Positions 11,216-55,224 of a stretch of 64,000 nucleotides of DNA are shown here, in pieces. The translations under genes and the position numbers were made by a program. Position 1 is the stretch's first letter. Every line of letters starts with the position of its first letter. Below the pieces are notes generated by a model that saw nothing but the letters and a program-made list of their open reading frames with translations, searched no databases and was not told the DNA's origin. The DNA is from Dehalococcoidia bacterium (GTDB taxonomy: Bacteria; Chloroflexota; Dehalococcoidia; Lucifugimonadales; Australimonadaceae). Location: NCBI GenBank assembly GCA_965219845.1, contig CBDCOP010000006.1, forward strand, positions 294,670-358,669. Direction: 5' to 3'.

Positions 11216-11270
11216 TGTATCCCTGTACCTGGCTGGCCCGAGATGGGGGCGACGGGGCTCCCTTACGCAG

Positions 11271-11304: not shown

Positions 11305-11347
11305 TCCTGTTCTATTGGCGGGGCCCTTGCTTGCCCAAGACTCCGCG

Positions 11348-12649: not shown

Positions 12650-12675
12650 TCTGTCCTCCTTTGCTACTTTAGCCC

Positions 12676-13254: not shown

Positions 13255-13699
13255 CCCGCGCTCTCCTCTTGAGGATCTGGATCGTGGAGGCGGAGCAGTC
13301 TTTCTGACGGATTGCCCATCTCAGCGCTGTGCGGCGCCTGAGGCTTCGCCACCACCCCCAGTGTGGTGAGCATACTGACTACGAGTGGCAGCGTCAATCC
13401 TACTATCACGCCTGAGGAAAGCCCGCTAATCGTACGTGCCGCCGCGTTCGCAGCGCTGTTTCGTCTGGGGCACCATCGGCCCGACGCACCAGGGGAATGG
13501 GCTGAGGCGACGCTTGACGCGCCCCGAGGCCGTGGGGACAATGCCCAAGCTGTCGAGGATGTATCGGGAGCGTCTGAGCCGGCGTGAGGGGCTGCCGAGG
13601 TGCATCCCCCCCAGCTACCAACGGGAGGTGCGCGCCTTCTGGGCATCGACAGGCCCGACTTGTCCTGTCATTGAATTTCAACAAAAAGGGGGCACAACG

Positions 13700-14881
13700 A
13701 TGGCAACCCTAGGCATCAAGAACATAGGTATCCTCGTATCGGGCGCTCTGGACAGAGGGCTCATCGATGCCGACACTGTTCTGTGTGAGGACGGGAAAAT
13801 CGCCCGCATCGGTAACGGACTTGACATGGCGTCCGCGGACGTCGTCGTGGACGCCCTTGGAACCACCGTCATGCCGGGGCTCATCGATTCTCACTGCCAC
13901 GTCGTCATCGGTGACTTCACGCCGAGGCAAAAGACGGTGGACTTCCTCGAATCGTACGTCCACGGGGGTGTGACGAGCGTAATCAGTCCTGGGGAGATTC
14001 ACGCCCCTGGACGTCCCAAGACGGCCGTGGGAGTGAAAGCCCTTGCCGTCGCGGCCCACGAATGCTTCTTGAACTTTCATCCCTTGGGCATGAAGTGCCA
14101 CGCAGGCTCAGTGATCATCGAGCCGACCCTCTCGCGGGGGGACTTCCAAGACATCGCTTCGCAGGGTGTGTGGCTGGCCAAGTACGGGTTCGGCGCCTTC
14201 GCCGACCCCGCCGACGGCGAGCCACAGGTGCGGTGGGCACAGGAGGCCGGGCTTAACGTGATGTGTCACTCGGGGGGGGCATCCATACCCGGCTCCAAGC
14301 CAATCACTGCCGACCATCTGATGATGCTAGCACCGAATATCGCAGGCCATGTCAATGGCGGCCCGACGGCCCTGACCGACGACGGCGTGCGCATGCTCGT
14401 TCTCGAGTCAAGCATGTACCTGCAGATCGTGCAGGCTGGGAACCTCAAGAAAACCTTCGAAATCGTCAACCTGGCCGCCGAATCTGGGGTACTGCCCCGT
14501 GTCATAGTTGGCAGTGACACTCCAACCGGGACCGGCGTCATGCCATTGGGAGTGCTGAAGACCATATGCGAAGTTGCCTCGATGACTGGCCTAGCCCCTG
14601 AGAAAACGCTCGCCCTGGCCCAGGGTAACAATGCACGCGCCTTCGACCTTAACCAGGGAGTCGTCGAGGAGGGAGCAGCGGCTGACCTCGTCGTACTGGA
14701 CACGCCATGGGGGTCGGTCGGCACTAACGCGCTCGAGGCAATCGCCCGTGGCGATATCCCCGGAATCTCCGCCATGATTCTCGACGGCAGAGTCCGAACG
14801 CTCCGAAGCCGGAACACGCCAGCTGCTGCACGCATGGCGCAGGTGGAGCCGTCCATGGGGTGGCTAGCGGACGGTCATTAG
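13700..14881 (+). CDS. Metal-dependent amidohydrolase (enamidase / imidazolonepropionase-like)
   Basis: ORF 13436..14881 is over-extended; ATG at 13700 follows AAAGGGGG. The N-terminal beta-sandwich start MATLGIKNIGILVSG and the metal motif GLIDSHCHVV are typical of the amidohydrolase superfamily. Confidence 0.75.
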   Translation: MATLGIKNIGILVSGALDRGLIDADTVLCEDGKIARIGNGLDMASADVVVDALGTTVMPGLIDSHCHVVIGDFTPRQKTVDFLESYVHGGVTSVISPGEIHAPGRPKTAVGVKALAVAAHECFLNFHPLGMKCHAGSVIIEPTLSRGDFQDIASQGVWLAKYGFGAFADPADGEPQVRWAQEAGLNVMCHSGGASIPGSKPITADHLMMLAPNIAGHVNGGPTALTDDGVRMLVLESSMYLQIVQAGNLKKTFEIVNLAAESGVLPRVIVGSDTPTGTGVMPLGVLKTICEVASMTGLAPEKTLALAQGNNARAFDLNQGVVEEGAAADLVVLDTPWGSVGTNALEAIARGDIPGISAMILDGRVRTLRSRNTPAAARMAQVEPSMGWLADGH

Positions 14882-29177: not shown

Positions 29178-30485
29178 ATGGTCGAGGAGCAGCAACAAGC
29201 GCCGGACGCGGAGCGGGGGGGGCGGGGGCGCGCTGAAGCGCGTCCCGCCTCCGCGGGAACGGCGGGTCCCGGACGTCGCCGCTGGCCCCGGACATTCGAC
29301 GCGCTCGCGGTGCCCGCGTACCGCAACTACTTCGTCGCGATGGTGTTCTTCTTGGGCGCGATGCAGGCGACGATGCTGGCGCGCCCCATCCTGGCCTACG
29401 ACCTGGCCGACCGCGCCCCCATCGTGCTGGGCCTCGTCCTCGCGGCGAACAACGCTCCGTCGCTCGTGCTGTCGCCGTTCGCGGGAGCGCTTGCGGACCG
29501 GGTCTCCATGCGGAACATCCTCATCATCGCGGCGGGGCTCATGTCCGCATTCGCCGGCATCACGGCGATCGGCGTCGTGCTGGACGTGCTGGAGTGGTGG
29601 CACGTCATGGTCATCGGCGTGTTCCAGGGCTCGGTGATGGTGTTCATCACGCCGGCGCGCCGCGCAATCATCGGCGGGCTCGTGGACGAGCGGCTGCTGC
29701 TGAATGCCACGGGCCTCCACACGATGGCGCATAACGCGACCCGGACGCTGCTGCCGCTGGTGGCCGGGCTCATCTTTGCGCGGGCGGGGCCGGAGTGGGC
29801 CTACCTGCTCGTGGTGGTGCTGTACGTCCTGGCGCTGGGCCTGCTGTTCTTCACGCCCGTGCGGGGCGTGGCGGCCCCGCGGCGGCGAAACCGCAGCGGC
29901 TCGACGCTGGAGGGCTTCAGGTACGCGTGGCAGGTGCCCGAGATCCGCACGCTGCTGCTCGTGGGGTTTGTCGTCACCGTGTTCGGACAGCCGTTCCAGA
30001 ACCTGCTGCCCCTTGCCCAGGACTTTCTGCAGATAGAGGCGGACGGCGTGGGCCTGTTGTTCACGTTCTACGGGCTCGGGTCGCTGCTGGGCTCGACGAC
30101 GGCCGCGTCGCTGGGGGACTTCCAGCGGAAGGGCCTGCTGTTGGTGGGCTTCTTCATGCTGTTCGGCGCCGGCGTCGTGGCGTTCGCGGCGTCGAGCTGG
30201 TACGCGCTCTCGCTGCTGCTCATGCTGCCTGCAGGGATGGGACACTCCGGGAGGATAGTGGTGCACCTCGCCATGCTGCAGACCTACTCGGAACCGGAGA
30301 TGCGCGGGCGCGTGCAGGCTCTGAACGCGATGATGGGCGGGCTGATGCCGCTGGCCATCCTGGGCATTGCGGGGCTGGCGGACCTGTACGGGGGCCGCGT
30401 TGCGCTCGGGGCGACGGGCGGCGTCATCGTGGCCTACGGCCTGTGGGAGACGCTGTTCTCAAAGACGCTGCGCAGGCTCCGGTAG
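29178..30485 (+). CDS. MFS transporter
   Basis: 435-aa ORF. Charged N-terminal tail, then ~12 hydrophobic segments. The FRNYF-type start (YRNYFVAMVFFLG) is typical of the EntS/MFS_3 group. Confidence 0.8.
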   Translation: MVEEQQQAPDAERGGRGRAEARPASAGTAGPGRRRWPRTFDALAVPAYRNYFVAMVFFLGAMQATMLARPILAYDLADRAPIVLGLVLAANNAPSLVLSPFAGALADRVSMRNILIIAAGLMSAFAGITAIGVVLDVLEWWHVMVIGVFQGSVMVFITPARRAIIGGLVDERLLLNATGLHTMAHNATRTLLPLVAGLIFARAGPEWAYLLVVVLYVLALGLLFFTPVRGVAAPRRRNRSGSTLEGFRYAWQVPEIRTLLLVGFVVTVFGQPFQNLLPLAQDFLQIEADGVGLLFTFYGLGSLLGSTTAASLGDFQRKGLLLVGFFMLFGAGVVAFAASSWYALSLLLMLPAGMGHSGRIVVHLAMLQTYSEPEMRGRVQALNAMMGGLMPLAILGIAGLADLYGGRVALGATGGVIVAYGLWETLFSKTLRRLR

Positions 30486-31149: not shown

Positions 31150-31746
31150 CTATCCGCGCTCGCCCGAGCCTTCGCTTCCGCCGCCGTCGTGCTTACCCGA
31201 GCCTTCGTCTTCGCGGTCGCTGCCGTGCTCGCCGGAGCCTTCGTCTTCGCGATCGCTGGTGTGCTCTTCGATGCCCTGAGGACCGACCTCCGCGTGCGGG
31301 TTCCAGGTGTCGAAGGGCTGGGCCGACGCGGGGAGAGTTACGCTGATCATCTGTCCTGATGCGAGGTCAACGGGAGTGGTGGGTCCGAGTTCGATCCCGT
31401 TGGAGAGGTGGACCTCGACGCGCACGTTCGAGAGGGTGGCGTTGGTGGTGTTCTCGACTGTGCCGGTGAAGGCGTTGGCCGCAGCATCGTAGCGGAGGAT
31501 GAGACGCGCGCCTGCGCGGACCTGGTCGAAGGTCTGCTCCTTCGTAAGCAGGTTGCGGGCCTCTTCGCCGCCGCCCTCTTCGGAACCTTCCTCGCTGCCG
31601 CCCTCTGAGCCTTCGTACTCTTCGCTTTCTGCGGCTTCCGTGTGGCTTTCGGAGTTGTCAGTGGTGCAGCCTGCGATGCCGCCTCCAAGGATGCTCATCA
31701 GGGCGAGCGCCGCGGTAATCACAAGCATCATCTGTCGTTTCTTCAT
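31150..31746 (-). CDS. Acidic lipoprotein of unknown function
   Basis: In ORF 31150..31797(-); ATG at 31746 follows AGAGGAG. Signal peptide with lipobox GGIAGC, a Glu/Gly/Ser-rich linker, and a C-terminal direct repeat SDREDEGSGEHG / SDREDEGSGKHD. Confidence 0.65.
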   Translation of the reverse strand: MKKRQMMLVITAALALMSILGGGIAGCTTDNSESHTEAAESEEYEGSEGGSEEGSEEGGGEEARNLLTKEQTFDQVRAGARLILRYDAAANAFTGTVENTTNATLSNVRVEVHLSNGIELGPTTPVDLASGQMISVTLPASAQPFDTWNPHAEVGPQGIEEHTSDREDEGSGEHGSDREDEGSGKHDGGGSEGSGERG

Positions 31747-32165: not shown

Positions 32166-32564
32166 CTACCGTGAGCGCGGCAGGCGCCAGGAACGGGTGA
32201 GGTTGTCCCAGCCGAGGTGTCCGTAGAATGCGTGCCCTTCCTCACTGGAGTGAAGGATGATTGTGCACTCGTCGCCGGCCTGCTCGCGGAAGCGCCGCAG
32301 CAGCTCCCGCCCGATGCCCAGGCGCTTGTAGGGCGCCGCGACGGCGAGCTCCGTCACGAGGGCGTAGACCGCGAAATCGGCGAGCCCGCGAACGATGCCA
32401 ACGAGCGCGCCGCCGTCCCGCGCCGTAACGATGACGTCGGCGTTGTTCAGCATCCGCTCGACGCGCCGGAGGTCGTCGAGCGGCCGGTTGAAGCCTCCTG
32501 CGCGGAGCAGGTCGGCCACCTCGGCTGCGCCTGGCATGTCGTCTGTTGAATAGGTGACGCTCAT
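32166..32564 (-). CDS. GNAT-family N-acetyltransferase
   Basis: ORF 32166..32798(-) is over-extended into REP DNA; ATG at 32564. GNAT motif A region ELAVAAPYKRLGIGRELLRRF. 132 aa. Confidence 0.75.
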   Translation of the reverse strand: MSVTYSTDDMPGAAEVADLLRAGGFNRPLDDLRRVERMLNNADVIVTARDGGALVGIVRGLADFAVYALVTELAVAAPYKRLGIGRELLRRFREQAGDECTIILHSSEEGHAFYGHLGWDNLTRSWRLPRSR

Positions 32565-32619
32565 GCTTTCCAACTGTCTCCTGACACCCTCACCTGCCGT
32601 GCTTCCCCACGGGGCACGA

Positions 32620-32790
32620 GGGGCTGCGAGGTTCCTGCCTGCGCAGGAACGACGGCTCCGCCGTCCCACGCCCCGCCACGCTACCTGACGGACGGCCTGG
32701 ATTCCAGCGGAGGCTGGAATGACGGGTGGGATGCTGGAATGACGGGTGGGATGCTGGAATGACGGGTGGAATGCTGGAATGACGGGAAGG
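32620..32790. repeat. REP cluster (D unit plus 20-bp tandem repeat of a C-type half site)
   Basis: AGGTTCCTGCCTGCGCAGGAACGAC, then GCTGGAATGACGGGTGGGAT repeated ~3.7 times (32713..32786). Confidence 0.9.
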
Positions 32791-32879
32791 GCGCGCATTC
32801 CTTGACACTTCCCCCCGCTAATCCTACGATGCGGCAGAATCTATATGGAAGGCTTGAATGGGGCGAAAGGAGCGGAGTC

Positions 32880-34097
32880 ATGCCGGAAGAGAATGTCCGG
32901 GCAGACAGGCTGGGAGGAAGAGCGACGCGGCGCAACATCGGCGGTCGCGACCTGACCGGCGAGGGCGATATCGATTACAAGTACATCTCAGCGGATAACC
33001 ACATAGACCTCGTCTGGTATCCGCACGACGTCATCCAGTCACGCATCGAACCGGAGTTCAGGGAGAAGGCCCCGAAGGTCGTCGAGTCGCATAAGGGCAC
33101 AGCGTGGCAGTGGGAAGACGACATCCACGCGTTCGCCGCCGACGGCAAGGACTGGGCGACTCACGCCAAGCGGTTCCTGCCCATCGAGGTCGAGGAGGGC
33201 CGGCTGCCGCCGTCCGACCCGGAGATACTGCTCCATCACATGGACATCGGCGAGTTTTACGCGGGCGTCTACTACGGGAATACCCGCAAATGGGTGTTCA
33301 AGGACAAGGAGCTGGAGAAGGCGGTCTACCGGGCGTTCAACGACTGGGCGGCGGAGCTGTGCTCCTACTCCCCGGACCGGTTGATCGTGCTGCCGTGGTT
33401 GCATGCAGCCTTCCCCGAGACGTGCGCTGCTGAACTGTACCGGCTCGCCGATCAGGGCATCCGCGCCGTCGAACTCAGCCCGAACGACATGGCGGAGGGC
33501 GTCTGGTCGCCCGTGTGGGAGCCTGTGTGGGCCGCGGCTGAAGAGACGCGCACGGTGATCTGCGGGCACATCGGCGACGCGGCGGGCACACCGTACCCGC
33601 CGAACGAGCACGGGCAATCGCTCGCACACTTCTCGCAGGTGCCGTTCAACCCGGCGGGCAAGCATATCGCCCAGTACGTGTTCAGCGGCATGTTCGACCG
33701 CCACCCGGACCTGCACGTCTCGATCGCGGAGTGCCGCATCGGGTGGCTGCCGTTCCTCTTCCAGTGGATGCAGCGCTGCTACAGCGACCGTGTGCGGGAC
33801 ACCATCCACCATCTGGACCAGGAGCCGCTGCACTACCTCAAGAACAACATGTCCTTCACGTTCGAGGAGGACTACATCGGCGCGAAGATGATTCCCGACC
33901 CCGAGTTCCTGATACGCGACAGCGTCATCTGGGGCTGCGACTACCCGCACGAGCAGGGGCAGACGTGGCCGGACGCGACGCCTGCGATGGAGCGCATGTT
34001 CACCGGCGTCGACCCGGACCTTGTGCACGAGGTCGTCTGGGGACGGTCGCAGCGTATCTTCCGCATCCAGGGACCGAACGGATCGAACGGGGGTTAG
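32880..34097 (+). CDS. Amidohydrolase_2 (ACMSD/TIM-barrel metal-dependent hydrolase or decarboxylase) family protein
   Basis: ATG at 32880, 8 nt after AAGGAG. N-terminal metal motif ISADNHID and C-terminal VIWGCDYPHEQG are typical of PF04909-type enzymes. 405 aa. Confidence 0.75.
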   Translation: MPEENVRADRLGGRATRRNIGGRDLTGEGDIDYKYISADNHIDLVWYPHDVIQSRIEPEFREKAPKVVESHKGTAWQWEDDIHAFAADGKDWATHAKRFLPIEVEEGRLPPSDPEILLHHMDIGEFYAGVYYGNTRKWVFKDKELEKAVYRAFNDWAAELCSYSPDRLIVLPWLHAAFPETCAAELYRLADQGIRAVELSPNDMAEGVWSPVWEPVWAAAEETRTVICGHIGDAAGTPYPPNEHGQSLAHFSQVPFNPAGKHIAQYVFSGMFDRHPDLHVSIAECRIGWLPFLFQWMQRCYSDRVRDTIHHLDQEPLHYLKNNMSFTFEEDYIGAKMIPDPEFLIRDSVIWGCDYPHEQGQTWPDATPAMERMFTGVDPDLVHEVVWGRSQRIFRIQGPNGSNGG

Positions 34098-34158
34098 GCG
34101 CTTGGCCGAGAACCGCCACAAGAAAGAGGTGCTGCTCGGCGACGAGCGCAACCGGCAG

Positions 34159-35277
34159 ATGGCCGCCGTGCTCCGCTACGGCCCCTACGTCTTCCTCTCC
34201 AGCTCCGACGGCTACCGCGACCTAGAGACGCAGCAGATCGACACGGAGTTGGACGGCCAGGCGACCCCGCAGTGCAACAACGCCTACGGGCGTCAGGCGC
34301 GGCGCCTGGAGCAGGTGGGCTACGGCGGCGACGCAGCGGTGTGGATAGAGAACTTCACGTCCGGCCAGTCGTGGCGTCTGGAGCGCATGGCGACTTGGCC
34401 GGACCACTTCGGCGAGGAAGGCCACAAGCTCGCGGTCAGCTTCGGCGCGCAGTGCAAGATGGCGGGGGTCAACATGCTCACCGCCGTCGTGATGGCGATG
34501 ACGCCCGACCTGGAAAGGCAGGTGTTCGTACACCAGCCGCACCGGGGGCGGGCGTCCCGCATCACACGCTGCGGCGACTTCACGTACGTCATCGGCGTAC
34601 GCGGCCGCTCCAACCCGTTCACGGAGGAAGAGGCGATCGAGGAGACGCCGGAGCAGTTCAACACGGAGCTGTTCTACACCTACGAGTGGCTCCGCTCACA
34701 CCTCGAGAAGGGCGGCGGCAGCCTGGACGACCTCGTGCGGACGGACTGCGCGCTGAAGCGCATCGGCGACGTGGGGCCGTACTACGACGAGCTGAAGGAG
34801 CGCTTCGGCGGCAGCGTGCCGTTCGCGGCGTACTCGGTGGGGACGCTCCTCGGCGGGCGCGGCGTCATGGAGATCGGCGGCCTCGCCATCAACCCCGGCG
34901 GGGTGAAGGAGACGGCGTGGCTGGCCGAGGACCCGGACCGGACGCAGGCCGTGCGGGCCAACGGACTCGTGTTCGCATCGAGCGCATCAGGGCTCGCGGA
35001 CGAGCAGACCGGCGCGGTGAAGCAGGAGCTGTACGGCGACCGCACCGGCCAGGCGCGGCAGGCGCTGCGACGACTGGACGCCGCGCTCAACCGGTTCGAC
35101 ACGTCGCTGGAGAACGTGCTGCGGCTCGACGTCTTCTTGGACGACATCTACTTCGAGGACGAGTTCGTTGCGCTCGCGGCGGAGCACTGGGGCGGCGACC
35201 CGCCGACGATGAACGTCGTCGGCGTCGACCTGCACGGCAACGCTGAGGTCGAACTCTCCTGCATCGCGGGTGCGTAG
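34159..35277 (+). CDS. Second single-chain triple-RidA/YjgF-domain protein
   Basis: In ORF 34021..35277. Start is ATG 34159, or TTG 34102 just after the upstream stop. Three RidA-like modules; the third is the clearest (VRANGLVFASSASG...VLRLDVFLDD...VELSCIAGA). Confidence 0.7.
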   Translation: MAAVLRYGPYVFLSSSDGYRDLETQQIDTELDGQATPQCNNAYGRQARRLEQVGYGGDAAVWIENFTSGQSWRLERMATWPDHFGEEGHKLAVSFGAQCKMAGVNMLTAVVMAMTPDLERQVFVHQPHRGRASRITRCGDFTYVIGVRGRSNPFTEEEAIEETPEQFNTELFYTYEWLRSHLEKGGGSLDDLVRTDCALKRIGDVGPYYDELKERFGGSVPFAAYSVGTLLGGRGVMEIGGLAINPGGVKETAWLAEDPDRTQAVRANGLVFASSASGLADEQTGAVKQELYGDRTGQARQALRRLDAALNRFDTSLENVLRLDVFLDDIYFEDEFVALAAEHWGGDPPTMNVVGVDLHGNAEVELSCIAGA

Positions 35278-35280
35278 GAC

Positions 35281-35802
35281 ATGACGGAGGCGAAGCCGGT
35301 CGCGGTCGGGGTCGAGGCGTCGGTCATCATGGCGGAGTTGCGTTCGCTGGGTATAGACCACGTCATCTGCATCCCGGACTCCTACCAGAAGACGCTCATC
35401 GTTGCACTGCAGGACGACCCGTCCATGCGCTTCATCACGGCATGCACCGAGGACGAGGCGATAGGCATCAACGCCGGGCTGTACATGGGCGGCAGGAACG
35501 CGATGCTGGTCATCCAGAACAACGGGATCTTCGCGTCCATCAACACGATCAAGGCGATCCCGCTGGACGCGCGCATCCCCACGTTCATCTTTGTGGGCCA
35601 GTTCCAGCGCGACCCGATGGTGCCCATAGAGGAGAGCAGGTCCCGCGCCGTTCGCATGGTGGAACCGACGCTGGACGTGTGGGGCGTGCCGCACTGGCGG
35701 TTGGAGGGGCCGGGCGATCTCGGCAACATCCGTGCGGCCCACGAGCGCGCGCACGAGACGCTGGGGCCCGCGGCGCTCATCGTGGGAGCGCCGACGCTGT
35801 AG
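35281..35802 (+). CDS. TPP-dependent decarboxylase, alpha (PYR-domain) subunit; sulfopyruvate/phosphonopyruvate decarboxylase-like
   Basis: 173 aa, starting 4 nt after the upstream stop. The pattern IDHVICIPDSYQKTLI...ACTEDEAIGINAG matches ComD-type N-terminal TPP-binding halves. Confidence 0.7.
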   Translation: MTEAKPVAVGVEASVIMAELRSLGIDHVICIPDSYQKTLIVALQDDPSMRFITACTEDEAIGINAGLYMGGRNAMLVIQNNGIFASINTIKAIPLDARIPTFIFVGQFQRDPMVPIEESRSRAVRMVEPTLDVWGVPHWRLEGPGDLGNIRAAHERAHETLGPAALIVGAPTL

Positions 35803-35804
35803 CC

Positions 35805-36368
35805 ATGGAACGCAACGAGGCCATAGAGATAATCGCGGAGGGGCGCGGCGACGCCGTCTCTGTCGTGACGATGCAGTCGATATACCCGTGGCACCAGGCA
35901 GGGCAGGGCGAGATACTCCACGTCGACGCCTCACAGTGCATGGGGAGCGCGTCGTCCATCGGTCTGGGGCTCGCGATGGCGCGCCCCGACAAGAAAGTCA
36001 TCGTGCTGGACGGCGACGGCAGCCTGCTCATGCAGTTGGGCTCGCTGGTCACCAACGCAGGGCAATCGCCCGCGAACCTCTACCACTTCGTCTTCGCCAA
36101 CGGCCTGCACCAGAGCACCGGCAACCAGCCTTTGCCCGCCGTCGGGCAGTTCGACTGGGTTGGGCTCGCGAAGTCCTCGGGGTACGCGGACGCACTCCGC
36201 ATCGAGGCGGCGGAGGACCTGCTGGAGCGTCTGCCGGAGGTGCTGGAGATGACGGGACCGGTGCTCATCGAACTCACCATCGAGCGGGAGGACCGCGACC
36301 CGCTCTGGGCGGGCGTGCCGATGTGGAAACAGACTGCGCTGCTCAAAGAGCAACTGGAGGCGTCATGA
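35805..36368 (+). CDS. TPP-dependent decarboxylase, beta (PP-domain) subunit
   Basis: ATG at 35805, 3 nt after the alpha stop. TPP/Mg motif VLDGDGSLLMQLGSLVT...N. 187 aa. Confidence 0.7.
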   Translation: MERNEAIEIIAEGRGDAVSVVTMQSIYPWHQAGQGEILHVDASQCMGSASSIGLGLAMARPDKKVIVLDGDGSLLMQLGSLVTNAGQSPANLYHFVFANGLHQSTGNQPLPAVGQFDWVGLAKSSGYADALRIEAAEDLLERLPEVLEMTGPVLIELTIEREDRDPLWAGVPMWKQTALLKEQLEAS

Positions 36369-37786
36369 GCGATGGCGGCTATTGGCGACTCTCCGCCACG
36401 GAACTGATCGAGGGGTACCGGAGGCGCGATTTCTCGCCCGTCGAGGTGATACGGGAGGTGTTCGAGCGCATCGAGCGGATCGATCCGAATCTGAGCGCGT
36501 TCCTCGCGGTGAACACGGACGACGCCATGAAGGCGGCCGAAGCTGCGGAAGCAGCCTGGCTCGGCTCGGGCGAGCGCGGCCTGCTCTGCGGCGTGCCGAT
36601 CTCGCTGAAGGACAGCATCGAGATGGCGGGTCACCCGACGACCTACGGCTCGCTGGCGTTCGTCGATAACCGGCAGCCGGACTCGGAGATAGCGCGGCGC
36701 ATCCGGCGCGAGGGCGGCGTGCTCATCGGCAAGACGAACCTGCCTGAGTTCGCGCTGCACGGCGCGGTGGACAATCGCATCAGCCCGCCGGGGCGCAATC
36801 CGTGGAACCTCGATCACACGTGCGGCGGCTCCAGCGGCGGCGCGGGCGCGCAGGTCGCAGCGGGCCTCGGTCCGCTTGCCATCGGCACAGACTCGGGCGG
36901 CTCGATACGGATGCCCGCTGCGATCAACGGGGTCTTCGGCATCAAGCCGACGTACCAGCGCATACCGGCTGCGCAGACGTGGCGCGCGGCGCCCGGACGC
37001 TCGCACAACGGCCCGCTGACGCGCACCGTGCGCGACTCCGCGCTCGTGCTCCAGGCGCTCGCGGGCTATGACCCGCGCGATGGGGAGTCCAACCTATCGC
37101 CGGTGAGCGACTACTTCGCGTTCGCGTCGGGCGACCTGCGCGGGCTGCGCGTCGCGGTGAGCTACGACTTCGGCAGGGGCTTCGCGATGGACGGTGAGGC
37201 GCTGGAGCACGTGCGCGACACCGCGCGCTTCTTCGAGGACGCGGGCTGCATCCTGATCGAAGCGGACCCGCCGACCATCGAAGAGCCGGAGGAGCTGGAA
37301 CCGGGCATCTGGGCGTATTCCGGCGACCACTACGCCGCCGCCGAGGCGATGGTCCCCGGCTTCCTGGAGAAGCACCTGGAAGACCTGAGCGACGTGGCGC
37401 GTCCTGTCTACGAGGCCGGGCCGCATGCGAAGGCGTGGCAGTCGCGGCGCATAGTGCGGCGCAACCGGGGGTACGGCCTGCGCGTGCAGGAGTGGTTCCG
37501 CAACTACGACCTGCTGCTGAGCCCGCTGATGGGTCCGGCGCAGCGGATAGACGCCGTGCGGATGCCGGACCGGTCGCGCCCGCCGCAGAGTTTCAGCACA
37601 CCGTTCAACCACGCGTACAACCCGGCGGCTGCCGTCCCCGTGGGTTTCCACTCGAACGGGCTGCCGCTCTCCGTGCAGATAGTGGGGCGTCTGTACGACG
37701 ACGTAGGCGTGCTGCGGGCGTCGGCAGCGCTGGAGCGCTCCCGCCCGTGGGGGCACAACTGGCCATCGCTGGCGGAGCAAGGGTAG
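36365..37786 (+). CDS. Amidase-signature (AS) family amidase
   Basis: ATGA overlap with the upstream stop. AS motifs GVPISLKDS and GGSSGGAGAQVAAGLGPLAIGTDSGGSIRMPA. 473 aa. Confidence 0.85.
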   Translation: MSDGGYWRLSATELIEGYRRRDFSPVEVIREVFERIERIDPNLSAFLAVNTDDAMKAAEAAEAAWLGSGERGLLCGVPISLKDSIEMAGHPTTYGSLAFVDNRQPDSEIARRIRREGGVLIGKTNLPEFALHGAVDNRISPPGRNPWNLDHTCGGSSGGAGAQVAAGLGPLAIGTDSGGSIRMPAAINGVFGIKPTYQRIPAAQTWRAAPGRSHNGPLTRTVRDSALVLQALAGYDPRDGESNLSPVSDYFAFASGDLRGLRVAVSYDFGRGFAMDGEALEHVRDTARFFEDAGCILIEADPPTIEEPEELEPGIWAYSGDHYAAAEAMVPGFLEKHLEDLSDVARPVYEAGPHAKAWQSRRIVRRNRGYGLRVQEWFRNYDLLLSPLMGPAQRIDAVRMPDRSRPPQSFSTPFNHAYNPAAAVPVGFHSNGLPLSVQIVGRLYDDVGVLRASAALERSRPWGHNWPSLAEQG

Positions 37787-37789
37787 GGG

Positions 37790-37993
37790 CTAGGCCTCGA
37801 CTAACTCGTAGGAGTGGGGTTCGGGTACCGGCAGGCCGTCTTCCTGTAGAGCTTCGAGATAGAGTTGGATGGCCTCGCGGATGAGCGTATCGACTTCTTC
37901 CCTGGTTTCTGCTGCGGCTACGCAGCCGGGCAGGTCCGGCACATACGCACCGTAACTGGTAGGGCCCTTCTCGATGATGACGGCGTACTTCAT
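37790..37993 (-). CDS. hicB: HicB-family antitoxin (short, UPF0150 type)
   Basis: ATG at 37993 overlaps the hicA stop (ATGA). MKYAVIIEKGPTSYGAYVPDLPGCVAAAETREE is the HicB N-domain signature. Confidence 0.8.
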   Translation of the reverse strand: MKYAVIIEKGPTSYGAYVPDLPGCVAAAETREEVDTLIREAIQLYLEALQEDGLPVPEPHSYELVEA

Positions 37994-38196
37994 CGGTTCG
38001 CTCTCTTGTCGAGACCAGCTTGCTTCAAGATATTCTCCCACGTCCCTTGCGGTATATCCACACCCGGGTGCCCCGATATGACGGTGGCCCCCGGTTTCGT
38101 TGGATGTTTGTACACCCGGTGGCTTCCCCTCGTTCTCACATGCTGCCATCCGTCCCGCTCAACCATGCGGATGGCATCCCTCACCTTTGGCGGCAT
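37990..38196 (-). CDS. hicA: HicA-family mRNA interferase toxin
   Basis: ATG at 38196 in ORF 37990..38268(-). The pattern VRDAIRMVERDGWQHVRTRGSHRVYKHP...IPQGTWENILKQAGL is the YcfA/HicA pattern including GSH. Confidence 0.8.
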   Translation of the reverse strand: MPPKVRDAIRMVERDGWQHVRTRGSHRVYKHPTKPGATVISGHPGVDIPQGTWENILKQAGLDKRANR

Positions 38197-38338
38197 ACCG
38201 TTCGTGCTCCCTGAACGTGCTTTGCTGAATGGTCTATGTGTGCACACTAAGGAGAGCGGCGGCAACATAACAAGGGGCAGATGTCACAAGACTGGCGTGG
38301 GTAGTCCTCCCTACCTGGCCGGAGGTCGCGGAAGAGAG

Positions 38339-39281: not shown

Positions 39282-40220
39282 ATGGACTCGACCCTCTGCA
39301 TCGGCATCGACGTCTCTCAGGACTGGCTCGACCTGACCGCTCACCCAGCCGGACAACCCCGGCGCTTCAAGACCACCCCTGACGGCCTCCGCTCTCTTGT
39401 CGAGCACTGCCGCGACGCTCAGCCCCGCTTGATCGCCTTCGAGGCCTCCGGCGGCTACGAACGCCCGCTCGCGGACACGCTCATCCAAGCGCAACTCCCC
39501 TTCGTCATCCTCAACCCCCGCAACGTTCGCTACCACGCCCGCTCCACCGGCATCCTGGCCAAGACGGACCGGATCGACGCTGCCGTCATCGCTCAGTTCG
39601 TCTACCGCAACGAGGTGCAGCCGAAGCCTGCGCCGTCGCCCGCGGAGCAGGCCGTGCGCGATCTGGCCACTCACCGCAACCAACTCGTCGATGCCCGGAC
39701 GCGCGCGATGCACGAGGGCCGGCACTTCACAGGGACGAGCTCGGCCAGCACCCAGCGCCATATCGCCTTCCTCGAACGGGAGATTGCTGCCATGGAGCAG
39801 GAGCTGCGGGAGGTCATCGCCCAGGACGTCTTCTTGCGCGAGCGCTCGGAGCGGCTGCGGAGCGTTCCCGGCGTCGGGGAGACGCTGGCGGCGGTGCTGC
39901 TCGGGGCCATGCCGGAACTGGGGCGCCTGAACCGGGGCGCCGTCGGCAAGCTGGCAGGTCTGGCCCCGCACGCCCGCGACAGCGGGAAGCGCGAGGGGAA
40001 GCGCTTCTGCTGGGGTGGGCGTGCGAACGTGCGGAGGGTGCTCTACATGCCTATGCTCGCGGCCATCCAGCACAACCCCGTGATCCGCGCCTTCTACCAG
40101 CGGCTGGTTGGCCAGGGCAAACCGAAGAAGGTGGCGCTGGTAGCCTGCATGCGCAAGATGCTGACGATACTGAACGCCATCCTACGGGAGGGGACCACCT
40201 GGAACCCACACATCGCTTGA
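39282..40220 (+). CDS. IS110-family transposase/recombinase (DEDD N-domain + C-terminal Ser domain)
   Basis: ATG at 39282 follows AAGGAGGA. The start CIGIDVSQDWLD and the blocks AFEASGGYE, KTDRIDA, VPGVGETLAAVLL and AGLAPHARDSGK are classic IS110 family features. 312 aa. Confidence 0.9.
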   Translation: MDSTLCIGIDVSQDWLDLTAHPAGQPRRFKTTPDGLRSLVEHCRDAQPRLIAFEASGGYERPLADTLIQAQLPFVILNPRNVRYHARSTGILAKTDRIDAAVIAQFVYRNEVQPKPAPSPAEQAVRDLATHRNQLVDARTRAMHEGRHFTGTSSASTQRHIAFLEREIAAMEQELREVIAQDVFLRERSERLRSVPGVGETLAAVLLGAMPELGRLNRGAVGKLAGLAPHARDSGKREGKRFCWGGRANVRRVLYMPMLAAIQHNPVIRAFYQRLVGQGKPKKVALVACMRKMLTILNAILREGTTWNPHIA

Positions 40221-40329: not shown

Positions 40330-41193
40330 TCAATTCCCGAGATACGCCTCGCGGGCGGAGCGGTAGTCGGCGGTCCCGGTGGCGATGCCCATCATCTCCG
40401 GAGTCGGCTCGCGGCCGGCGAGGTCGGCGGAGGGCGCGCCGGACGCCTGGTGCGCGAGCGATTCGTAGACGGTGCGGACGGTCTGCGTGAACGTGCCGTG
40501 TCCGCGCAGCACGATCTTCACACCGTAGCGGGCGAGGATGTCGGTCGTGAGCGCCCCCGGCGTGCTGCCGAGCATGAAGGGCAGGCCCGTGAGGGCGCGC
40601 GCGGCCTGCAGGTGCGCCTCCTCCCGCACGCCCATGAGGAAGATGCCGTCCACGCCGGTCTCCGCATAGGCGGCGACGCGCACGAGCGCATCGTCGAGGC
40701 TGGTGGCGTTGATGGCGTGGGTGCGCCCCAGGATGACGGTCGCGTCGTCCTGCCGGGCGGCGACGGCGGCGCGCAGCTTGCCGGTCATCTCGTCGACCGG
40801 GATGAGCTCCTCCTTGCCGCCTGAGCCGTACCGGCTGGGAAGCGACGTGTCCTCGATGGTCATGCCGCTCGCGCCCGCATCCTCCAGTTCGCGGACGGTG
40901 CGCATGACGTTCAGCGCATTGCCGTAGCCGTTGTCGGCGTCGATCATCTGGCTGATGTCGGATGCGCGGGTGATGCGGCGCACCTGGTCGGCGAGCTCGG
41001 TGAGGGTCATCACGGCGACGTCCGGCGCTCCGAGGATGACGGCGCTCGCTATTGAGCCGCCGAGCATGCCGACTTCGAATCCGAGGGCGTAGGCGGTGCG
41101 CGACGAGACGGGGTCGAACACGGATGCGGGACGGATGCAGCCCTCGCGCTGGAGGTAGTCGCGCAGGCGTCGGCGGCGGTCGGTGACGTGCAT
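40330..41193 (-). CDS. Isocitrate lyase / PEP mutase superfamily enzyme (oxaloacetate decarboxylase / methylisocitrate lyase-like)
   Basis: 287-aa ORF. Family patterns DADNGYGNA and GMTIEDTSLP. Lacks the EDKxxxxxNS signature of true PEP mutases. Confidence 0.7.
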   Translation of the reverse strand: MHVTDRRRRLRDYLQREGCIRPASVFDPVSSRTAYALGFEVGMLGGSIASAVILGAPDVAVMTLTELADQVRRITRASDISQMIDADNGYGNALNVMRTVRELEDAGASGMTIEDTSLPSRYGSGGKEELIPVDEMTGKLRAAVAARQDDATVILGRTHAINATSLDDALVRVAAYAETGVDGIFLMGVREEAHLQAARALTGLPFMLGSTPGALTTDILARYGVKIVLRGHGTFTQTVRTVYESLAHQASGAPSADLAGREPTPEMMGIATGTADYRSAREAYLGN

Positions 41194-51709: not shown

Positions 51710-53959
51710 ATGGTTGCTCAACCCACCGGGCGCGCTATCGGTGTGCCCACCCCCCGAGTCGACGGCGTCGAGAAAGCAACGGGCCGCGCCGTCTACACCG
51801 CCGACGTACAGTTGGATGGGGCGCTCTTTGCCAAGACGCTGCGTTGTCCCTTTCCCCATGCCCGCATCCTCTCCATAGACACGTCCGCGGCAGAGCGGGC
51901 GCCCGGCGTGCACGCCGTTGTCACCGGCGCGGACATCTACGAGGGCGCTCGGCACGGACGCGCGGTGCTGGACGTTCCCGTGCTTGCGCAGGGCGTCGCC
52001 CGGTTCATCGGCGAGCAGGTCGCGGCCGTGGCCGCGGACGACGAGGACATCGCACAGCGCGCACTCGACCTCATCGAAGTGGAATACGAAGAGTTGCCCG
52101 CCGTGCTGACGATGGACGAAGCGAAGGCGGAGGGCGCGCCGCTCGTGCACGAGGACATGCTGCAGGTGAAGGGCTACCCGAAGGAGGTAACCGAGCCGAG
52201 CAACGTCTACACCGTCTGGGAGTGGGCGAAGGGCGACGTCGAGGCGGGGATGGCGGAGGCCGACGTGATCGTGGAGAACACGTTCACGACGCCGCGCCAG
52301 CACCAGGCGTACCTGGAGCCGCACACCTGCCTCGTGGCGGCGCACCCGTCAGGCAAGGTGGACGTGTGGGCTGCGAACAAGTCGCCCCACCCGGGCAAGC
52401 GGATGGTGGCCATGGCGCTAGGGCTGGACGCCGGGGACGTGGTATTCAACCCCGTCACCATAGGCGGCGACTTCGGGGGCAAGGGCTCCGCGATGGCGAT
52501 ACCCATCGCGTGGATGCTTTCCACGCGCTCCGACAGGCCAGTGAAGATCGTGTTCGACTACTCGGAAGACCTCACGTCCGCTAACCCACGCCACGAGTCC
52601 CGTGTCACAGTGCGCACCGGCGCGACGCGCGAAGGCATCATCCTGGCGCATGAGGCGCTGGTGGAATACAACAGCGGCGCGTACGCCGGCTTCAAGCCCG
52701 GCGGGCACCTCGGCGGCGCCAGCGCCGCGGCGGGACCGTACCGGGCGGCGAACACACGCATCGTGGAGCACCAGGTCTACACGAACAACGTGCCGTGCGG
52801 GTACATGCGCGGCCCGGGAGAGCCGCAGGCGATGTTCGCGGTGGAGTCGCAGATCGACTGCCTCGCGGCGGCGCTGGGGATGGACCCCGCGGAGTTGCGC
52901 CGCCGGAACCTCGTTATCGAGGGCGAGCAGGACTCGCTTGGCACCGTGTTCGAGCAGGTGCGTTCCATCGAAACGCTGGATGCCGCACTGGACGCGGCGG
53001 GCTATGCCAAGCCGAGGCCCTCGGACGAACGTCTCGCTTATGGCAGGGGCGTCGCCATCGGCGAGCGCGTGCAGGCAGGCGGCGAGACGCACGCGGGTGT
53101 GACGTTGCACCCGGACGGATCGGTAACGGTCAACACCTCCGTCTTCGAACAGGGCACCGGCTCCTACACCGTGATGCAGCAGATCGTCGCGGACGAACTG
53201 CGCCTGCCGATCGAGCAGGTGCGCGTCGCCGTGTGGGACACTGCGAGCACGTCGTTCGACTCCGGCATCGGCGGCGCGCGGGTGACGCGGATGGCGAGCG
53301 CGGCGGTGTGGAACGCGGCGCAGGCCGCCAAGGGCGAACTGTTCAAGCTGGCGGCGGACATCCTCGGCTGGCCGGAGGACACGTTGGAGGTGGACGGACC
53401 GGCGCTGCGGCGGACCGACTCCAGCGAGACCATCGAGTGGGCGTCGCTGGCGGAGCGCACCGGCGCCCCCATCGTGGGCCTGGGCGACGTGCAGGACACG
53501 GCCAGGAACCCCTACACCGCGTTCACGGCGCAGGTCGCCGAGGTGGCGGTCGACCGGGAGACGGGACAGGTGAGACTGCTGACGATGACCACGGCTCACG
53601 ACACCGGCAAGATACTCAATCCCATCGGCCACCAGGGGCAGGTCAACGGCGGGCTCGTGCAGGGCATCGGTTTCGGCCTGCAGGAGGAGTTGGCGGTCGA
53701 GGACGGACGCGTCACCACGGCATCGTTCGCCGACTACAAGATCCCAACGGTTGCCGACCTTCCGGAGCTGCGCACGGTGCTGCTGGACGAGGACCAGGGC
53801 GGCGGTTGGGGCCCGTACCAGGTCAAGGGCATCGGCGAGCAGTCCAACTCGCAGGCCGCCCCCGCCATAGCGAACGCCGTCGCCGACGCCGTTGGGGTGC
53901 GCATACGCGACCTTCCCGTAACGGCGGAGAAGGTGTACCAGGCACTGCACGCTCGATGA
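51710..53959 (+). CDS. Molybdopterin-binding subunit of a xanthine dehydrogenase / aldehyde oxidase / CoxL-family oxidoreductase
   Basis: ATG at 51710 in ORF 51653..53959. N-terminal a/b-hammerhead pattern PRVDGVEKATGRAVYTADV...HARILSIDTS..A...PGVHAVVTGADI. 749 aa. Confidence 0.85.
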   Translation: MVAQPTGRAIGVPTPRVDGVEKATGRAVYTADVQLDGALFAKTLRCPFPHARILSIDTSAAERAPGVHAVVTGADIYEGARHGRAVLDVPVLAQGVARFIGEQVAAVAADDEDIAQRALDLIEVEYEELPAVLTMDEAKAEGAPLVHEDMLQVKGYPKEVTEPSNVYTVWEWAKGDVEAGMAEADVIVENTFTTPRQHQAYLEPHTCLVAAHPSGKVDVWAANKSPHPGKRMVAMALGLDAGDVVFNPVTIGGDFGGKGSAMAIPIAWMLSTRSDRPVKIVFDYSEDLTSANPRHESRVTVRTGATREGIILAHEALVEYNSGAYAGFKPGGHLGGASAAAGPYRAANTRIVEHQVYTNNVPCGYMRGPGEPQAMFAVESQIDCLAAALGMDPAELRRRNLVIEGEQDSLGTVFEQVRSIETLDAALDAAGYAKPRPSDERLAYGRGVAIGERVQAGGETHAGVTLHPDGSVTVNTSVFEQGTGSYTVMQQIVADELRLPIEQVRVAVWDTASTSFDSGIGGARVTRMASAAVWNAAQAAKGELFKLAADILGWPEDTLEVDGPALRRTDSSETIEWASLAERTGAPIVGLGDVQDTARNPYTAFTAQVAEVAVDRETGQVRLLTMTTAHDTGKILNPIGHQGQVNGGLVQGIGFGLQEELAVEDGRVTTASFADYKIPTVADLPELRTVLLDEDQGGGWGPYQVKGIGEQSNSQAAPAIANAVADAVGVRIRDLPVTAEKVYQALHAR

Positions 53960-54006
53960 GGCGTCAGCCGGAGACCGGGGAGGCACCCCTTGGTCAGGAG
54001 GGGACC

Positions 54007-55224
54007 GTGGGGGGACGCGGACCCCGCACGTTCTCGGCGATGGCGTACGCACAGTACCGGCGCTTGTGGGGCGGCACGTTCTTCACGTTCTCCGCAGGGC
54101 AGATGACCATCATCGCACGTCCGTGGCTCGCCTACGAACTGACAGGGTCCGCGTTCTGGGTGGGGGTTGTGGCGCTCGGACAGGGCATCCCCATGTTCTT
54201 CATGTCACCACTGGGCGGAGTGGCAGCGGACAAGCTCTCGAAACGGGCGGTGCTGCTCGCCTCGCAGACCGCGTTGTTGGTGATGGCGCTCGTCCTCGTC
54301 GTGGTGCTCTACCTTGAGGTCGTGGAAGTCTGGCACCTCTTGGTGCTTGCGCTCGTACACGGCTCAGCGATGCCGTTCAACATGCCGGTACGGCAGTCAT
54401 ACGTTCCCTTGCTGCTGCCGAGGCGGCTGATCCCGAACGGCGTCGCGTTGCAAGCGGCGGGGCGGAACGTCAACCAGGTCGCCGCGCCGGGCGTTGCCGG
54501 CATCCTGCTGGGGATCGACCCACTCATCGCGTTCGTCACCATAGCGTCGTTCCACGTGCTCTCGATGGCGATGTCGCTGACCTTCCCGGCGGGGCGCCCG
54601 GAACAGCAGCGCAGCCGCGGGATGCGCGGCGAGCTGCTGTTGGGGTTCCGCTACGTCTTCTCGACGCCGCTTCTGCGGCTGCTGTTCGGAATGTTGGTCA
54701 TCATGCTGGTGCTCGGCATGCCTTACGTGCACCTGTTGCCGGTGTTCCAGGAGGTGCTGAGCATCGGCCCGGAACTGCTGGGCTTCATGTACGCGGCGAC
54801 AGGTCTGGGCGGGTTCTGCGGGTCGCTGACGGTCGCGTCGTTCACGCGGCTGGCTGGCGGCCTGCCGCAGATGATCGCTGGGATAGGTTTCGGAGTGGCG
54901 CTGGCGGCATTCGCGCTGTCGCCCTCCTACGCACTCAGCATCGCGCTGCTCTTCTGCACGGGCTTCGCGCACCAGGCGTACACCACCATCAACCAGACGC
55001 TCATCATCACGCGGACGGACCCGGCACTGTACGGGCGCGTGATGAGCATCAACCTCATGATGCGCTCGTTCATCACCATGGCCATCCTGCCGTTCGGTGC
55101 GCTGGTCGACCAGTTCGGCGCGCCGGTCACCCTCGCGGCCGCCGGCGGGATACTCGCCGGATCGCTGCTGCTCATCGGCCTGGTGCGAGGAACGACGATA
55201 CCGGAGGGCGTGCGGGGTGCGTGA
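54007..55224 (+). CDS. MFS transporter (MFS_3/EntS-like)
   Basis: Tail of ORF 52795..55224. GTG at 54007 lies 4 nt after AGGAGGG (an ATG at 54040 is also possible). YRRLWGGTFFTFSAGQM start typical of this group. Confidence 0.8.
   Translation: MGGRGPRTFSAMAYAQYRRLWGGTFFTFSAGQMTIIARPWLAYELTGSAFWVGVVALGQGIPMFFMSPLGGVAADKLSKRAVLLASQTALLVMALVLVVVLYLEVVEVWHLLVLALVHGSAMPFNMPVRQSYVPLLLPRRLIPNGVALQAAGRNVNQVAAPGVAGILLGIDPLIAFVTIASFHVLSMAMSLTFPAGRPEQQRSRGMRGELLLGFRYVFSTPLLRLLFGMLVIMLVLGMPYVHLLPVFQEVLSIGPELLGFMYAATGLGGFCGSLTVASFTRLAGGLPQMIAGIGFGVALAAFALSPSYALSIALLFCTGFAHQAYTTINQTLIITRTDPALYGRVMSINLMMRSFITMAILPFGALVDQFGAPVTLAAAGGILAGSLLLIGLVRGTTIPEGVRGA

Follow-up and report, generated by a model that had tools for sequence, protein, structure and literature searches.

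What does a tightly packed set of genes do that joins a PF04909 protein and a three-domain Rid-fold protein to a split thiamine pyrophosphate (TPP) enzyme and an amidase? The question is raised by positions 32880-37786 of the stretch analyzed here, 64 kb of DNA (GC ~65%) from contig CBDCOP010000006.1 of a Dehalococcoidia bacterium (assembly GCA_965219845.1), which is referred to as the window. This interval is filled by five open reading frames (ORFs), labeled g1 to g5. Their order is conserved across phyla, and we tentatively read them as a catabolic operon acting on a small nitrogen-containing carboxylate.

32880-34097, + strand: g1, PF04909 protein, 405 aa
34102-35277, + strand: g2, three-domain Rid-fold protein, 391 aa
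35281-35802, + strand: g3, alpha subunit of the split TPP enzyme, 173 aa
35805-36368, + strand: g4, beta subunit of the split TPP enzyme, 187 aa
36365-37786, + strand: g5, amidase-signature protein, 473 aa

The outer coordinates, the gene order and the tight packing reported in a first-pass annotation of this DNA are borne out by the ORF coordinates. The gaps are 4 nt (g1-g2), 3 nt (g2-g3) and 2 nt (g3-g4), and g4 and g5 share a 4-nt ATGA overlap. One boundary has to be moved. The start of g2 had been placed at ATG 34159, which is too late, because 47 of the 49 top full-length homologs (≥69% identity) are 390-393 aa long with ~100% coverage, as expected for a start at TTG 34102, and because D14, E15 and R16, all invariant or nearly so, are encoded 5' of that ATG. 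Codon-usage log-odds are strongly positive for all five genes. Scanning of positions 32400-38300 revealed no terminator-like site inside the operon and a sole promoter-like site:

32802..32830, + strand: candidate sigma-70-like promoter TTGACA-17-TACGAT, a consensus match 50 nt 5' of the g1 ATG

Together with the spacing, these observations fit g1-g5 being a single putative transcription unit.

To establish how widely the set is distributed, we scanned genome contigs with a g2 profile, which yielded 51 loci (designated by L-numbers), and then compared these loci with all five proteins using tblastn. The closest g2 loci (94-97% identity) come from metagenome-assembled genomes (MAGs) of Dehalococcoidia/Chloroflexota, and one relative is labeled SAR202. 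The order g1-g2-g3-g4-g5 is syntenic in ~30 Chloroflexota MAGs, representing essentially every Chloroflexota locus with enough flanking sequence. The exceptions are L029, which is without g5, and L051, in which g2 is truncated to residues 1-206; together with a 1.8-kb insertion between g3 and g4 in L006 (9724-11558), they are signs of decay or rearrangement. Extra sequence separates g4 and g5 in five Chloroflexota loci. In four of them (L021, L023, L024 and L025) it includes a gene for a short-chain dehydrogenase/reductase (SDR), 45-53% identical to the SDR of the non-Chloroflexota locus L055, and in the fifth (L026) it is shorter and has no SDR match. Beyond Chloroflexota, all five genes are present at 44-60% identity in Rhodospirillales and other Alphaproteobacteria (L038, L039 and L047), in Eremiobacterota / Ca. 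Lustribacter (L041, L042 and L045) and on four further metagenome contigs (L053-L056). Two additional alphaproteobacterial contigs, L044 and L046, end after g4. No match to g2 was found by tblastn among 72,556 plasmids, a set that thus yielded no annotated copy from a cultured organism. Looking for the set as a unit in other genomes was proposed in the first-pass annotation, and the cross-phylum synteny, with occurrences in at least six bacterial phyla, confirms that it is one. Each family by itself is known, as is the triple-Rid architecture; for their conserved combination no description was found in the literature searched, in line with the earlier remark that it matched no nameable pathway.

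Reduced or substituted versions of the cluster occur in Methylomirabilota/Rokubacteria, Binatia and Acidimicrobiales. Two Rokubacteria/Methylomirabilota loci (L037 and L040) and L052 combine g1 and g2 with an isochorismatase-family hydrolase, adjacent or fused to g2, and with an ABC transporter; neither a TPP enzyme nor an amidase is found in these neighborhoods. The Acidimicrobiales locus L050 contains g1, g2, then a full-length TPP enzyme and then an aldehyde dehydrogenase (ALDH) in place of the split TPP enzyme. This full-length enzyme exceeds the PRK07064 cut-off, and the 5-guanidino-2-oxopentanoate decarboxylase family is among its next-best matches. The swap is a non-orthologous replacement that keeps the function. 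The same locus (6779-13523) has an M19 dipeptidase between g1 and g2, and its ALDH, 856 aa in length, bears an N-terminal extension of ~400 aa without an assigned family. As for g5, it is kept in the great majority of full clusters, and the variants without it carry the isochorismatase-family hydrolase instead.

Several accessory genes recur outside Chloroflexota: a GntR/UTRA regulator, an NAD-dependent ALDH (clustered in L039, L044-L047 and L053-L056), a gene for an ABM-fold protein, and a solute-binding protein with its transporter, either of the NMT1/SsuA type or SBP_bac_1/8 with a fused double permease. The ABM gene (PF03992, ~105 aa) was placed by tblastn directly 5' of g2, in the g1-g2 interval, at 13 non-Chloroflexota loci; those listed are L039, L042, L044-L048, L050 and L053-L056 (e.g. 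L055 8495-8806). It is absent from the Chloroflexota loci, where the g1-g2 spacing is 4-8 nt in the closest relatives. L053 and L055 additionally carry an epimerase-family SDR, an alpha/beta hydrolase and a nitroreductase, and L055 alone adds a flavin reductase and a Fer2/NAD-binding reductase, so that redox partners are encoded at both loci. Homologs of these accessory genes were found nowhere in the 64-kb window.

The g1 protein matches Pfam Amidohydro_2 (PF04909, a TIM-barrel family; 1.4e-20, 74.7 bits, residues 142-395), the family named in the first-pass annotation. Its more specific designation as an ACMSD-type hydrolase/decarboxylase does not stand. In a comparison with all PDB sequences the best matches of g1 are PtmU3 (1.9e-30), DitZ (4.6e-18), 8sm8 (1e-11), 6m1w (8e-10), which we take to be AibH2, SfbO (8sm6, 2e-9) and 8sm9; LigW (8e-7) and ACMSD (6e-4) come only after these six. 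All six are amidohydrolase-related dinuclear oxygenases (AROs) (PMC10811679, PMC13154177). The defining motifs of AROs are D-x-H near the N-terminus and D-x-P-H-x-[D/E] near the C-terminus, the latter missing from all characterized PF04909 hydrolases and decarboxylases, and the group is estimated at ~17,000 sequences, mostly misannotated (PMC13154177). The g1 residues D39-N-H41, H230, E284 and D354-Y-P-H357 align with the metal ligands of PtmU3 and DitZ, with D39-N40-H41 opposite D-D-H of DitZ, and all six primary dinuclear metal ligands are invariant in 50 orthologs (42-96% identity). The N-terminal D-x-H is thus in place, and the C-terminal motif begins at residue 354, in agreement with the ≥200 residues that precede it in AROs. 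The x of D-x-H is hydrophilic in g1 (Asn), as is presumably the case in diiron 'high-potential' AROs. Non-redox PF04909 enzymes generally carry H-x-H instead, and the ACMSD type combines a mononuclear site and N-terminal H-x-H with D-x-P-[FY] at strand 8, whereas g1 has D-N-H and D-Y-P-H. We therefore rejected the ACMSD-type assignment given the D-x-H, the six dinuclear ligands and the far weaker ACMSD match. In sequence, g1 is closer to characterized AROs than to PF04909 hydrolases/decarboxylases, and we consider it an ARO-like protein of a variant, PtmU3-like clade with predicted oxygenase activity. AROs oxidize C-H bonds with O2 at an Fe2 or Mn/Fe site. Two kinds of chemistry are relevant here: the ARO SfbO hydroxylates a C-H alpha to nitrogen to give a hemiaminal, and a cyclic alpha-amino acid undergoes oxidative decarboxylation by BarH-type AROs. 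The reductase-type genes and the ABM gene of the relatives fit an O2-dependent g1 step.

In the second protein, Pfam recognizes Ribonuc_L-PSP (PF01042) in the C-terminal third only (residues 282-389; 5e-11, 43 bits versus a cut-off of 27.3). Nevertheless, the AlphaFold2 model (21-sequence alignment; pLDDT 93.1, pTM 0.93) displays the same secondary-structure unit three times, at residues ~1-135, 136-265 and 266-391. Profile-profile comparison of the thirds with hhalign gave 95% for D1-D2, 96% for D1-D3 and 99% for D2-D3 (E 2e-8 to 2e-17). The triple-Rid architecture proposed earlier is thereby confirmed, and g2 is modeled as a single-chain pseudo-trimer of three Rid/YjgF-fold domains. Such a fusion has already been described as '3x-RidA' (PMC4433059), and chorismatases and cyanuric acid hydrolases are further known examples of the three-domain architecture. 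Among the full-length Foldseek matches of g2, the best are the chorismatases 5ag3, 5a3k and 4bps (E 2e-13 to 2e-11 over ~362 columns; TM 0.51-0.54 by query and 0.59-0.62 by target; 13-15% identity), while single RidA chains cover one g2 domain each. The Toblerone cyclic amide hydrolase 5hy2 is a weak match at rank 46 (E 1.3e-7, TM 0.40/0.45, 10% identity); hydrolases of this three-domain fold (AtzD/barbiturase) have Ser-Lys dyads at a central site. The g2 locus has no shikimate-pathway context.

According to the first-pass annotation, g2 would quench imines in the manner of RidA, which now appears doubtful. The position of the catalytic RidA residue Arg105 (E. coli numbering), which binds the carboxylate of the substrate, is occupied by Met in domain 3 (P-T-M versus P-A-R) and by Ala in domain 2 (P-F-A), and domain 1 is unalignable there. 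The E. coli RidA sequence used in this alignment was entered by hand; the alignment with PH0854 independently puts Arg opposite a hydrophobic residue. Replacement of Arg105 by Ala nearly abolishes imine hydrolysis by RidA (PMC4433059). The invariant polar residues of g2 (D14, Q57, N60, R68, S87, Q89, R95 and R150) cluster in domains 1 and 2; E15, R16 and R153 are counted to the same conserved site. An exhaustive profile search returned 41 matches at E<=1e-30, fragments included, which correspond to ~25 full-length clusters at 50% identity, compared with ~400 matches, mostly generic 3x-Rid-like proteins, at E<=1e-10. On these counts, g2 represents a small distinct subfamily.

The next two genes encode the alpha (PYR domain; g3, Pfam TPP_enzyme_N 2.6e-7) and beta (PP domain; g4, TPP_enzyme_C 1.7e-17) subunits of a TPP enzyme. 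Of the earlier 'ComD/ComE-like' label the split alpha/beta architecture holds, but the ComDE and Ppd equivalog cut-offs are missed. In NCBIfam, g3 scores 71.2 bits against sulfopyru_alph (cut-off 147.95) and 50.3 against Ppd (312.5), and g4 scores 100.8 against sulfopy_beta (221.5) and 115.9 against Ppd (312.5). The nearest PDB entries are RhiE for g3 (9iz3_A, E 6e-7) and RhiF for g4 (9iz3_B, E 3e-16), another two-subunit TPP enzyme, 9u8q, being also among the nearest structures. E57 in the T-E-D-E motif of g3, which we assume to be the cofactor-activating Glu, is invariant in 43 orthologs. In g4, G70, D71, G72 and N99 of the G70-D71-G72...N99 motif are invariant. The best 120 homologs of g4 are all orthologs from the same cluster. 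The proposal that this enzyme decarboxylates a 2-oxo acid is strengthened by the co-occurrence of ALDH and by the full-length TPP decarboxylase of the Acidimicrobiales locus.

The amidase-signature label of g5 is likewise confirmed, by a full-length match to Pfam Amidase (PF01425; 2.6e-100, 337 bits, profile positions 1-445 of 445). K82, S156 and S180 are invariant in 38 orthologs, and their spacing of 74 and 24 residues is, we presume, that of the Lys-cisSer-Ser catalytic triad. The best NCBIfam match, PRK06169, is below its cut-off (355 versus 506), and g5 therefore falls outside every named equivalog.

How might these proteins work together? Our tentative reading, which we hold to be somewhat short of probable, is that the operon is catabolic, with an oxygenase at the start; its substrate could be an amino acid, either unusual or N-substituted, or else an N-heterocyclic carboxylate. 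In step 1, g1, as an ARO-type two-metal oxygenase, would oxidize the C-H next to nitrogen in an O2-dependent initiation; sequence similarity and the conserved ligands underlie this assignment. In step 2, g2 would turn the product of g1, a hemiaminal, imine or enamine, into a 2-oxo acid. RidA (2-aminoacrylate to pyruvate) and chorismatase (enol ether to pyruvate) exhibit this general chemistry of the fold. In step 3, g3/g4 would decarboxylate the 2-oxo acid to an aldehyde, which in other phyla the clustered ALDH would oxidize to an acid (step 4). The linkage of ALDH and the swap in L050 to a full-length TPP decarboxylase plus ALDH provide the strongest support for this oxo acid-aldehyde-acid branch. 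Finally, in step 5, g5, or the isochorismatase in the variants, would remove an amide or ureido nitrogen of the substrate or of a side-product, releasing ammonia. Amide hydrolysis is integral, since g5 is present in most full clusters and the isochorismatase where g5 is absent.

A number of points weigh against this scheme. The substrate and the enzyme roles in all steps are predictions from sequence and gene context. The strict D-x-P-H-x-[D/E] motif is not retained in g1: its final position is Q359, which is Gln in 48 of 49 orthologs and never D/E. The residue at this seventh motif position binds the metal directly in PtmU3 and belongs to the second sphere in other AROs, and given Q359, g1 could be a non-redox dinuclear hydrolase. 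The RidA arginine is missing from domains 2 and 3 of g2. The variants made up of g1, g2 and the isochorismatase have no TPP enzyme and can evidently do without the decarboxylation branch, and the place of the amidase in the scheme is unconstrained by any result. Moreover, the 64-kb window has no reductase, Rieske ferredoxin, ABM or ALDH gene, and therefore steps 1 and 4 would need unlinked partners in this genome.

A bolder form of this oxygenase-initiated scheme, possible but on the unlikely side, centers on the first two genes. The g1-g2 pair, joined by the ABM protein outside Chloroflexota, would be a new two- or three-component C-N-cleaving system composed of an amidohydrolase-fold two-metal oxygenase and a non-RidA Rid-fold pseudo-trimer. 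It would act on an abundant, so far unrecognized marine or soil nitrogen compound, and split TPP decarboxylases would receive the product as a substrate of a new class. If true, this would be the first physiological pathway for a sizeable orphan ARO clade and the first function for Arg-less 3x-Rid proteins. A specialist is likely to be most surprised that an ARO-like PF04909 protein and an Arg-less 3x-Rid protein form an obligatory pair across phyla.

Alternatively, the operon might dismantle a pyrimidine-type or other N-heterocyclic ring, in the manner of the Lum and Rut modules. Here, g1 and/or g2 (Toblerone-like) would open the ring, g5 would cleave an amidine or ureido group like LumM, and g3/g4 would remove a ring carboxylate like LumK/LumL. 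Lumichrome catabolism employs the hydrolases LumH, LumI and LumM and a two-subunit TPP heterocycle decarboxylase, LumK/LumL (20 + 23 kDa) (PMC12746152). If the letters follow the genomic order, lumK-lumL-lumM would parallel g3-g4-g5, and the sizes are similar. An isochorismatase, the family of RutB and, by our guess, of LumI, is fused to some g2 homologs. In some relatives the cluster further includes genes of the families of RutE (nitroreductase), RutD (alpha/beta hydrolase), RutF (flavin reductase) and RutA (luciferase-like), but such a Rut-like set occurs in two loci only. ABM-fold proteins, often cofactor-free oxygenases of electron-rich aromatic substrates, also count in favor of a ring substrate. 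No quinoxaline, pteridine or ring-oxidizing genes are consistently adjacent. The match of g2 to 5hy2 ranks below those to single-domain RidA proteins. Heterocycle decarboxylation gives no aldehyde, which leaves the strong co-conservation of ALDH and the L050 replacement unexplained. We regard a ring-dismantling module as unlikely.

The purely hydrolytic, non-oxidative interpretation of the first-pass annotation, with an ACMSD-type g1, a genuine RidA-type g2 quenching a reactive intermediate, a ComDE/Ppd-type decarboxylase and an amidase, seems to us still more doubtful. The Pfam families are as that annotation stated, the C-terminal domain of g2 does match RidA proteins (2dyy, E 1e-11), and FAD-dependent DAO-family oxidoreductases, able to make imines, flank the cluster in L038 and L054. 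Q359 of g1, a departure from the ARO motif, would also suit a hydrolase. Nonetheless, g1 is separated from ACMSD by the E-values, the D-x-H and the complete set of dinuclear ligands described above. Domains 2 and 3 of g2 are without the arginine whose change to Ala almost abolishes RidA activity (PMC4433059), and its conserved polar residues are in domains 1 and 2 rather than in the RidA-like domain 3.

The flanks of the operon are also partly conserved. In Chloroflexota, synteny extends upstream to genes for an MFS transporter and a GNAT protein, and downstream to a PEP_mutase/ICL-family gene in convergent orientation and to an ABC-2 exporter. The corresponding genes of the window include:

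29178..30485, + strand: MFS transporter (Pfam MFS_1), a candidate uptake system
40330..41193, - strand: PEP mutase/isocitrate lyase superfamily protein (Pfam PEP_mutase 7e-37), convergent with g5

The MFS transporter gene is found 5' of g1 in most Chloroflexota loci (51-90% identity). The PEP_mutase-family gene is 0-5 kb past g5 in most Chloroflexota relatives, directly so in L018, L019, L005, L029 and L032. Its product is PrpB-like, although below the NCBIfam prpB cut-off (155 versus 354 bits), and possibly acts on the oxo-acid product.

This gene bears on the weakest of the alternatives, an organosulfonate or organophosphonate route, in which g3/g4 would be a true sulfopyruvate/phosphonopyruvate decarboxylase acting on an oxo acid from cysteate, phosphonoalanine or a related amide, and the PEP-mutase-family protein would act on the same compound class. 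Even though the nearest named families and structures of g3/g4 are ComDE, Ppd and RhiEF, the PEP_mutase-family gene is syntenic, some relatives have SsuA/TauA-family (NMT1) or weakly PhnS-like binding proteins and a regulator best matching NCBIfam PhnF, and sulfonate binding as well as a response to 2-aminoethylphosphonate is known for the ARO SfbO (PMC10811679), we consider this route very improbable, as all g3/g4 scores are far under the equivalog cut-offs, the PEP-mutase-family protein is best described as PrpB-like, the binding-protein matches are family-level only, and xsc, pta, sulfite exporter, phnX, phnA and phnW-type genes are absent from all neighborhoods examined (~40 neighboring genes of relatives).

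Two further ORFs lie between g5 and the PEP_mutase-family gene:

37790-37993, - strand: HicB-like antitoxin ORF
39282-40220, + strand: IS110-family transposase

We rejected both as parts of the operon. None of the related loci contains a counterpart of the IS110 gene, which is therefore probably a recent insertion, and HicB-type ORFs are variably present at this spot in relatives. On the upstream side, a 198-aa ORF at 31150-31746 (- strand) has a hydrophobic N-terminus, MKKRQMMLVITAALALMSILGGGIA, and no Pfam match; it has homologs 5' of the operon at five of the related loci (L009, L012-L014 and L034). Directly 5' of the promoter-like -35 box there is also a repeat:

32709..32786, strand not assigned: tandem repeat of 3.9 copies of a 20-bp unit, GGATGCTGGAATGACGGGTG (TRF score 142, 96% matches)

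With 4 copies versus 0.01 expected by chance, it may be a regulatory, operator-like element, or junk. As a conserved operator it was rejected, since none of 52 related loci has the repeat 5' of g1; the 13-nt core occurs in related loci just four times, in three of them and always at other positions. The repeat is therefore specific to this genome.

The window encodes a second triple-Rid protein, which belongs to a separate neighborhood:

4200-5435, - strand: second triple-Rid gene, of the generic 3x-Rid kind, with three Pfam-recognizable Rid domains
5413-6600, - strand: M24 creatinase/prolidase-like gene, overlapping the second triple-Rid gene by ~23 nt

This protein is weakly similar to g2. 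It was found by phmmer with domain 3 of g2 and was not detected when the five operon proteins were compared with the window by tblastn (E 1e-3). The earlier description of a second, distantly related triple-Rid protein beside a C-N hydrolase is therefore accurate. By eye, it too has no equivalent of Arg105. Two SDR-like genes and a dienelactone-hydrolase-like gene, also labeled by eye, flank it at 3392-8436 (- strand), a region that is probably a separate catabolic operon.

Further genes noted in the window are:

11348-12649, - strand: Rieske/LigXa-type oxygenase
12676-13254, - strand: PF06684 'amino acid synthesis' family protein
13700-14881, + strand: Amidohydro_1 enzyme

LigXa-type Rieske oxygenases are also near the cluster in L039 and L056. 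At 51743-55224, a molybdopterin-binding large subunit of the xanthine-dehydrogenase/aldehyde-oxidase type (738 aa) is followed by an MFS transporter, and the window as a whole encodes at least six MFS transporters.

The cluster has a wide distribution among uncultured lineages, including Dehalococcoidia/SAR202-type Chloroflexota, Eremiobacterota, Methylomirabilota, Binatia and Alphaproteobacteria. The lineages carrying it are thought to process recalcitrant dissolved organic nitrogen, and with the substrate identified, one more pathway would be added to nitrogen and carbon cycling in the environment. The cluster also places three poorly understood enzyme groups in a conserved physiological context: AROs, Arg-less 3x-Rid proteins and split TPP decarboxylases, the last of which are, to our knowledge, so far known only from the coenzyme M, phosphonate and lumichrome pathways. 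The automatic labels 'amidohydrolase', 'RidA' and 'sulfopyruvate/phosphonopyruvate decarboxylase' are probably misleading for the genes of this operon.

Several known systems resemble the operon in part. The lumichrome module of Nocardioides simplex (PMC12746152) shares a two-subunit TPP decarboxylase of ~20 + 20 kDa and an amidase of ~50 kDa, whose gene in the window is immediately downstream, and both sets sit next to other C-N hydrolases in a cluster for catabolism of a nitrogen compound. The 24-kDa LumI may belong to the isochorismatase family that is fused to g2 homologs in some relatives. Unlike the Lum module, the operon has no linked P450, xanthine-oxidase-like or Rieske genes, the ALDH of its relatives points to an aldehyde product, and the Lum paper states no counterpart of g1 or g2. 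With the Rut pathway (RutA-G), some relatives share an isochorismatase (RutB), a Rid protein (RutC), an alpha/beta hydrolase (RutD), a nitroreductase (RutE) and a flavin reductase (RutF). However, these accessory genes occur at two of the examined loci and not in the window, the operon is without a RutA orthologue, and Rut for its part includes no TPP decarboxylase, amidase or ARO-like protein.

The arginine transaminase/dehydrogenase route (DauA/AruH, AruI, KauB) has the logic of our scheme: an imino or oxo acid passes through TPP-dependent decarboxylation by AruI to an aldehyde and on to the ALDH KauB. As a precedent for the part of g2, Rid proteins are reported to accelerate the step of the DauA amino-acid dehydrogenase (PMC5619798). 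In the DavB/DavA pair, an amino-acid 2-monooxygenase and an amidase, an amide is hydrolyzed to the same chain-shortened acid. Unlike in the arginine and DavBA routes, the initiating enzyme of the operon would be a PF04909 protein and not a flavoenzyme or aminotransferase, and unlike AruI, the decarboxylase is of the split ComDE type, except in L050.

At the level of single proteins, g1 shares with the AROs PtmU3, DitZ, AibH2 and SfbO (PMC13154177, PMC10811679) the PF04909 fold, the D-x-H, the mid-barrel His, the bridging Glu and the D-x-P-H. It differs from them in the nearly invariant Gln at the final motif position and in having no Rieske ferredoxin neighbor, and we found no ARO context described in the literature searched that combines a 3x-Rid protein, a split TPP enzyme and an amidase. 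As for g2, both 3x-RidA (Niehaus et al. 2015, PMC4433059) and the chorismatases FkbO/Hyg5 (4bps, 5a3k and 5ag3) have three tandem YjgF/Rid-fold domains per chain arranged as a pseudo-trimer, as predicted for g2, on a fold whose chemistry is the hydrolysis of 2-hetero-substituted acrylates to 2-oxo acids. In contrast to these proteins, g2 has a single Pfam-recognizable domain and no Arg105, and its conserved site is located in domains 1 and 2.

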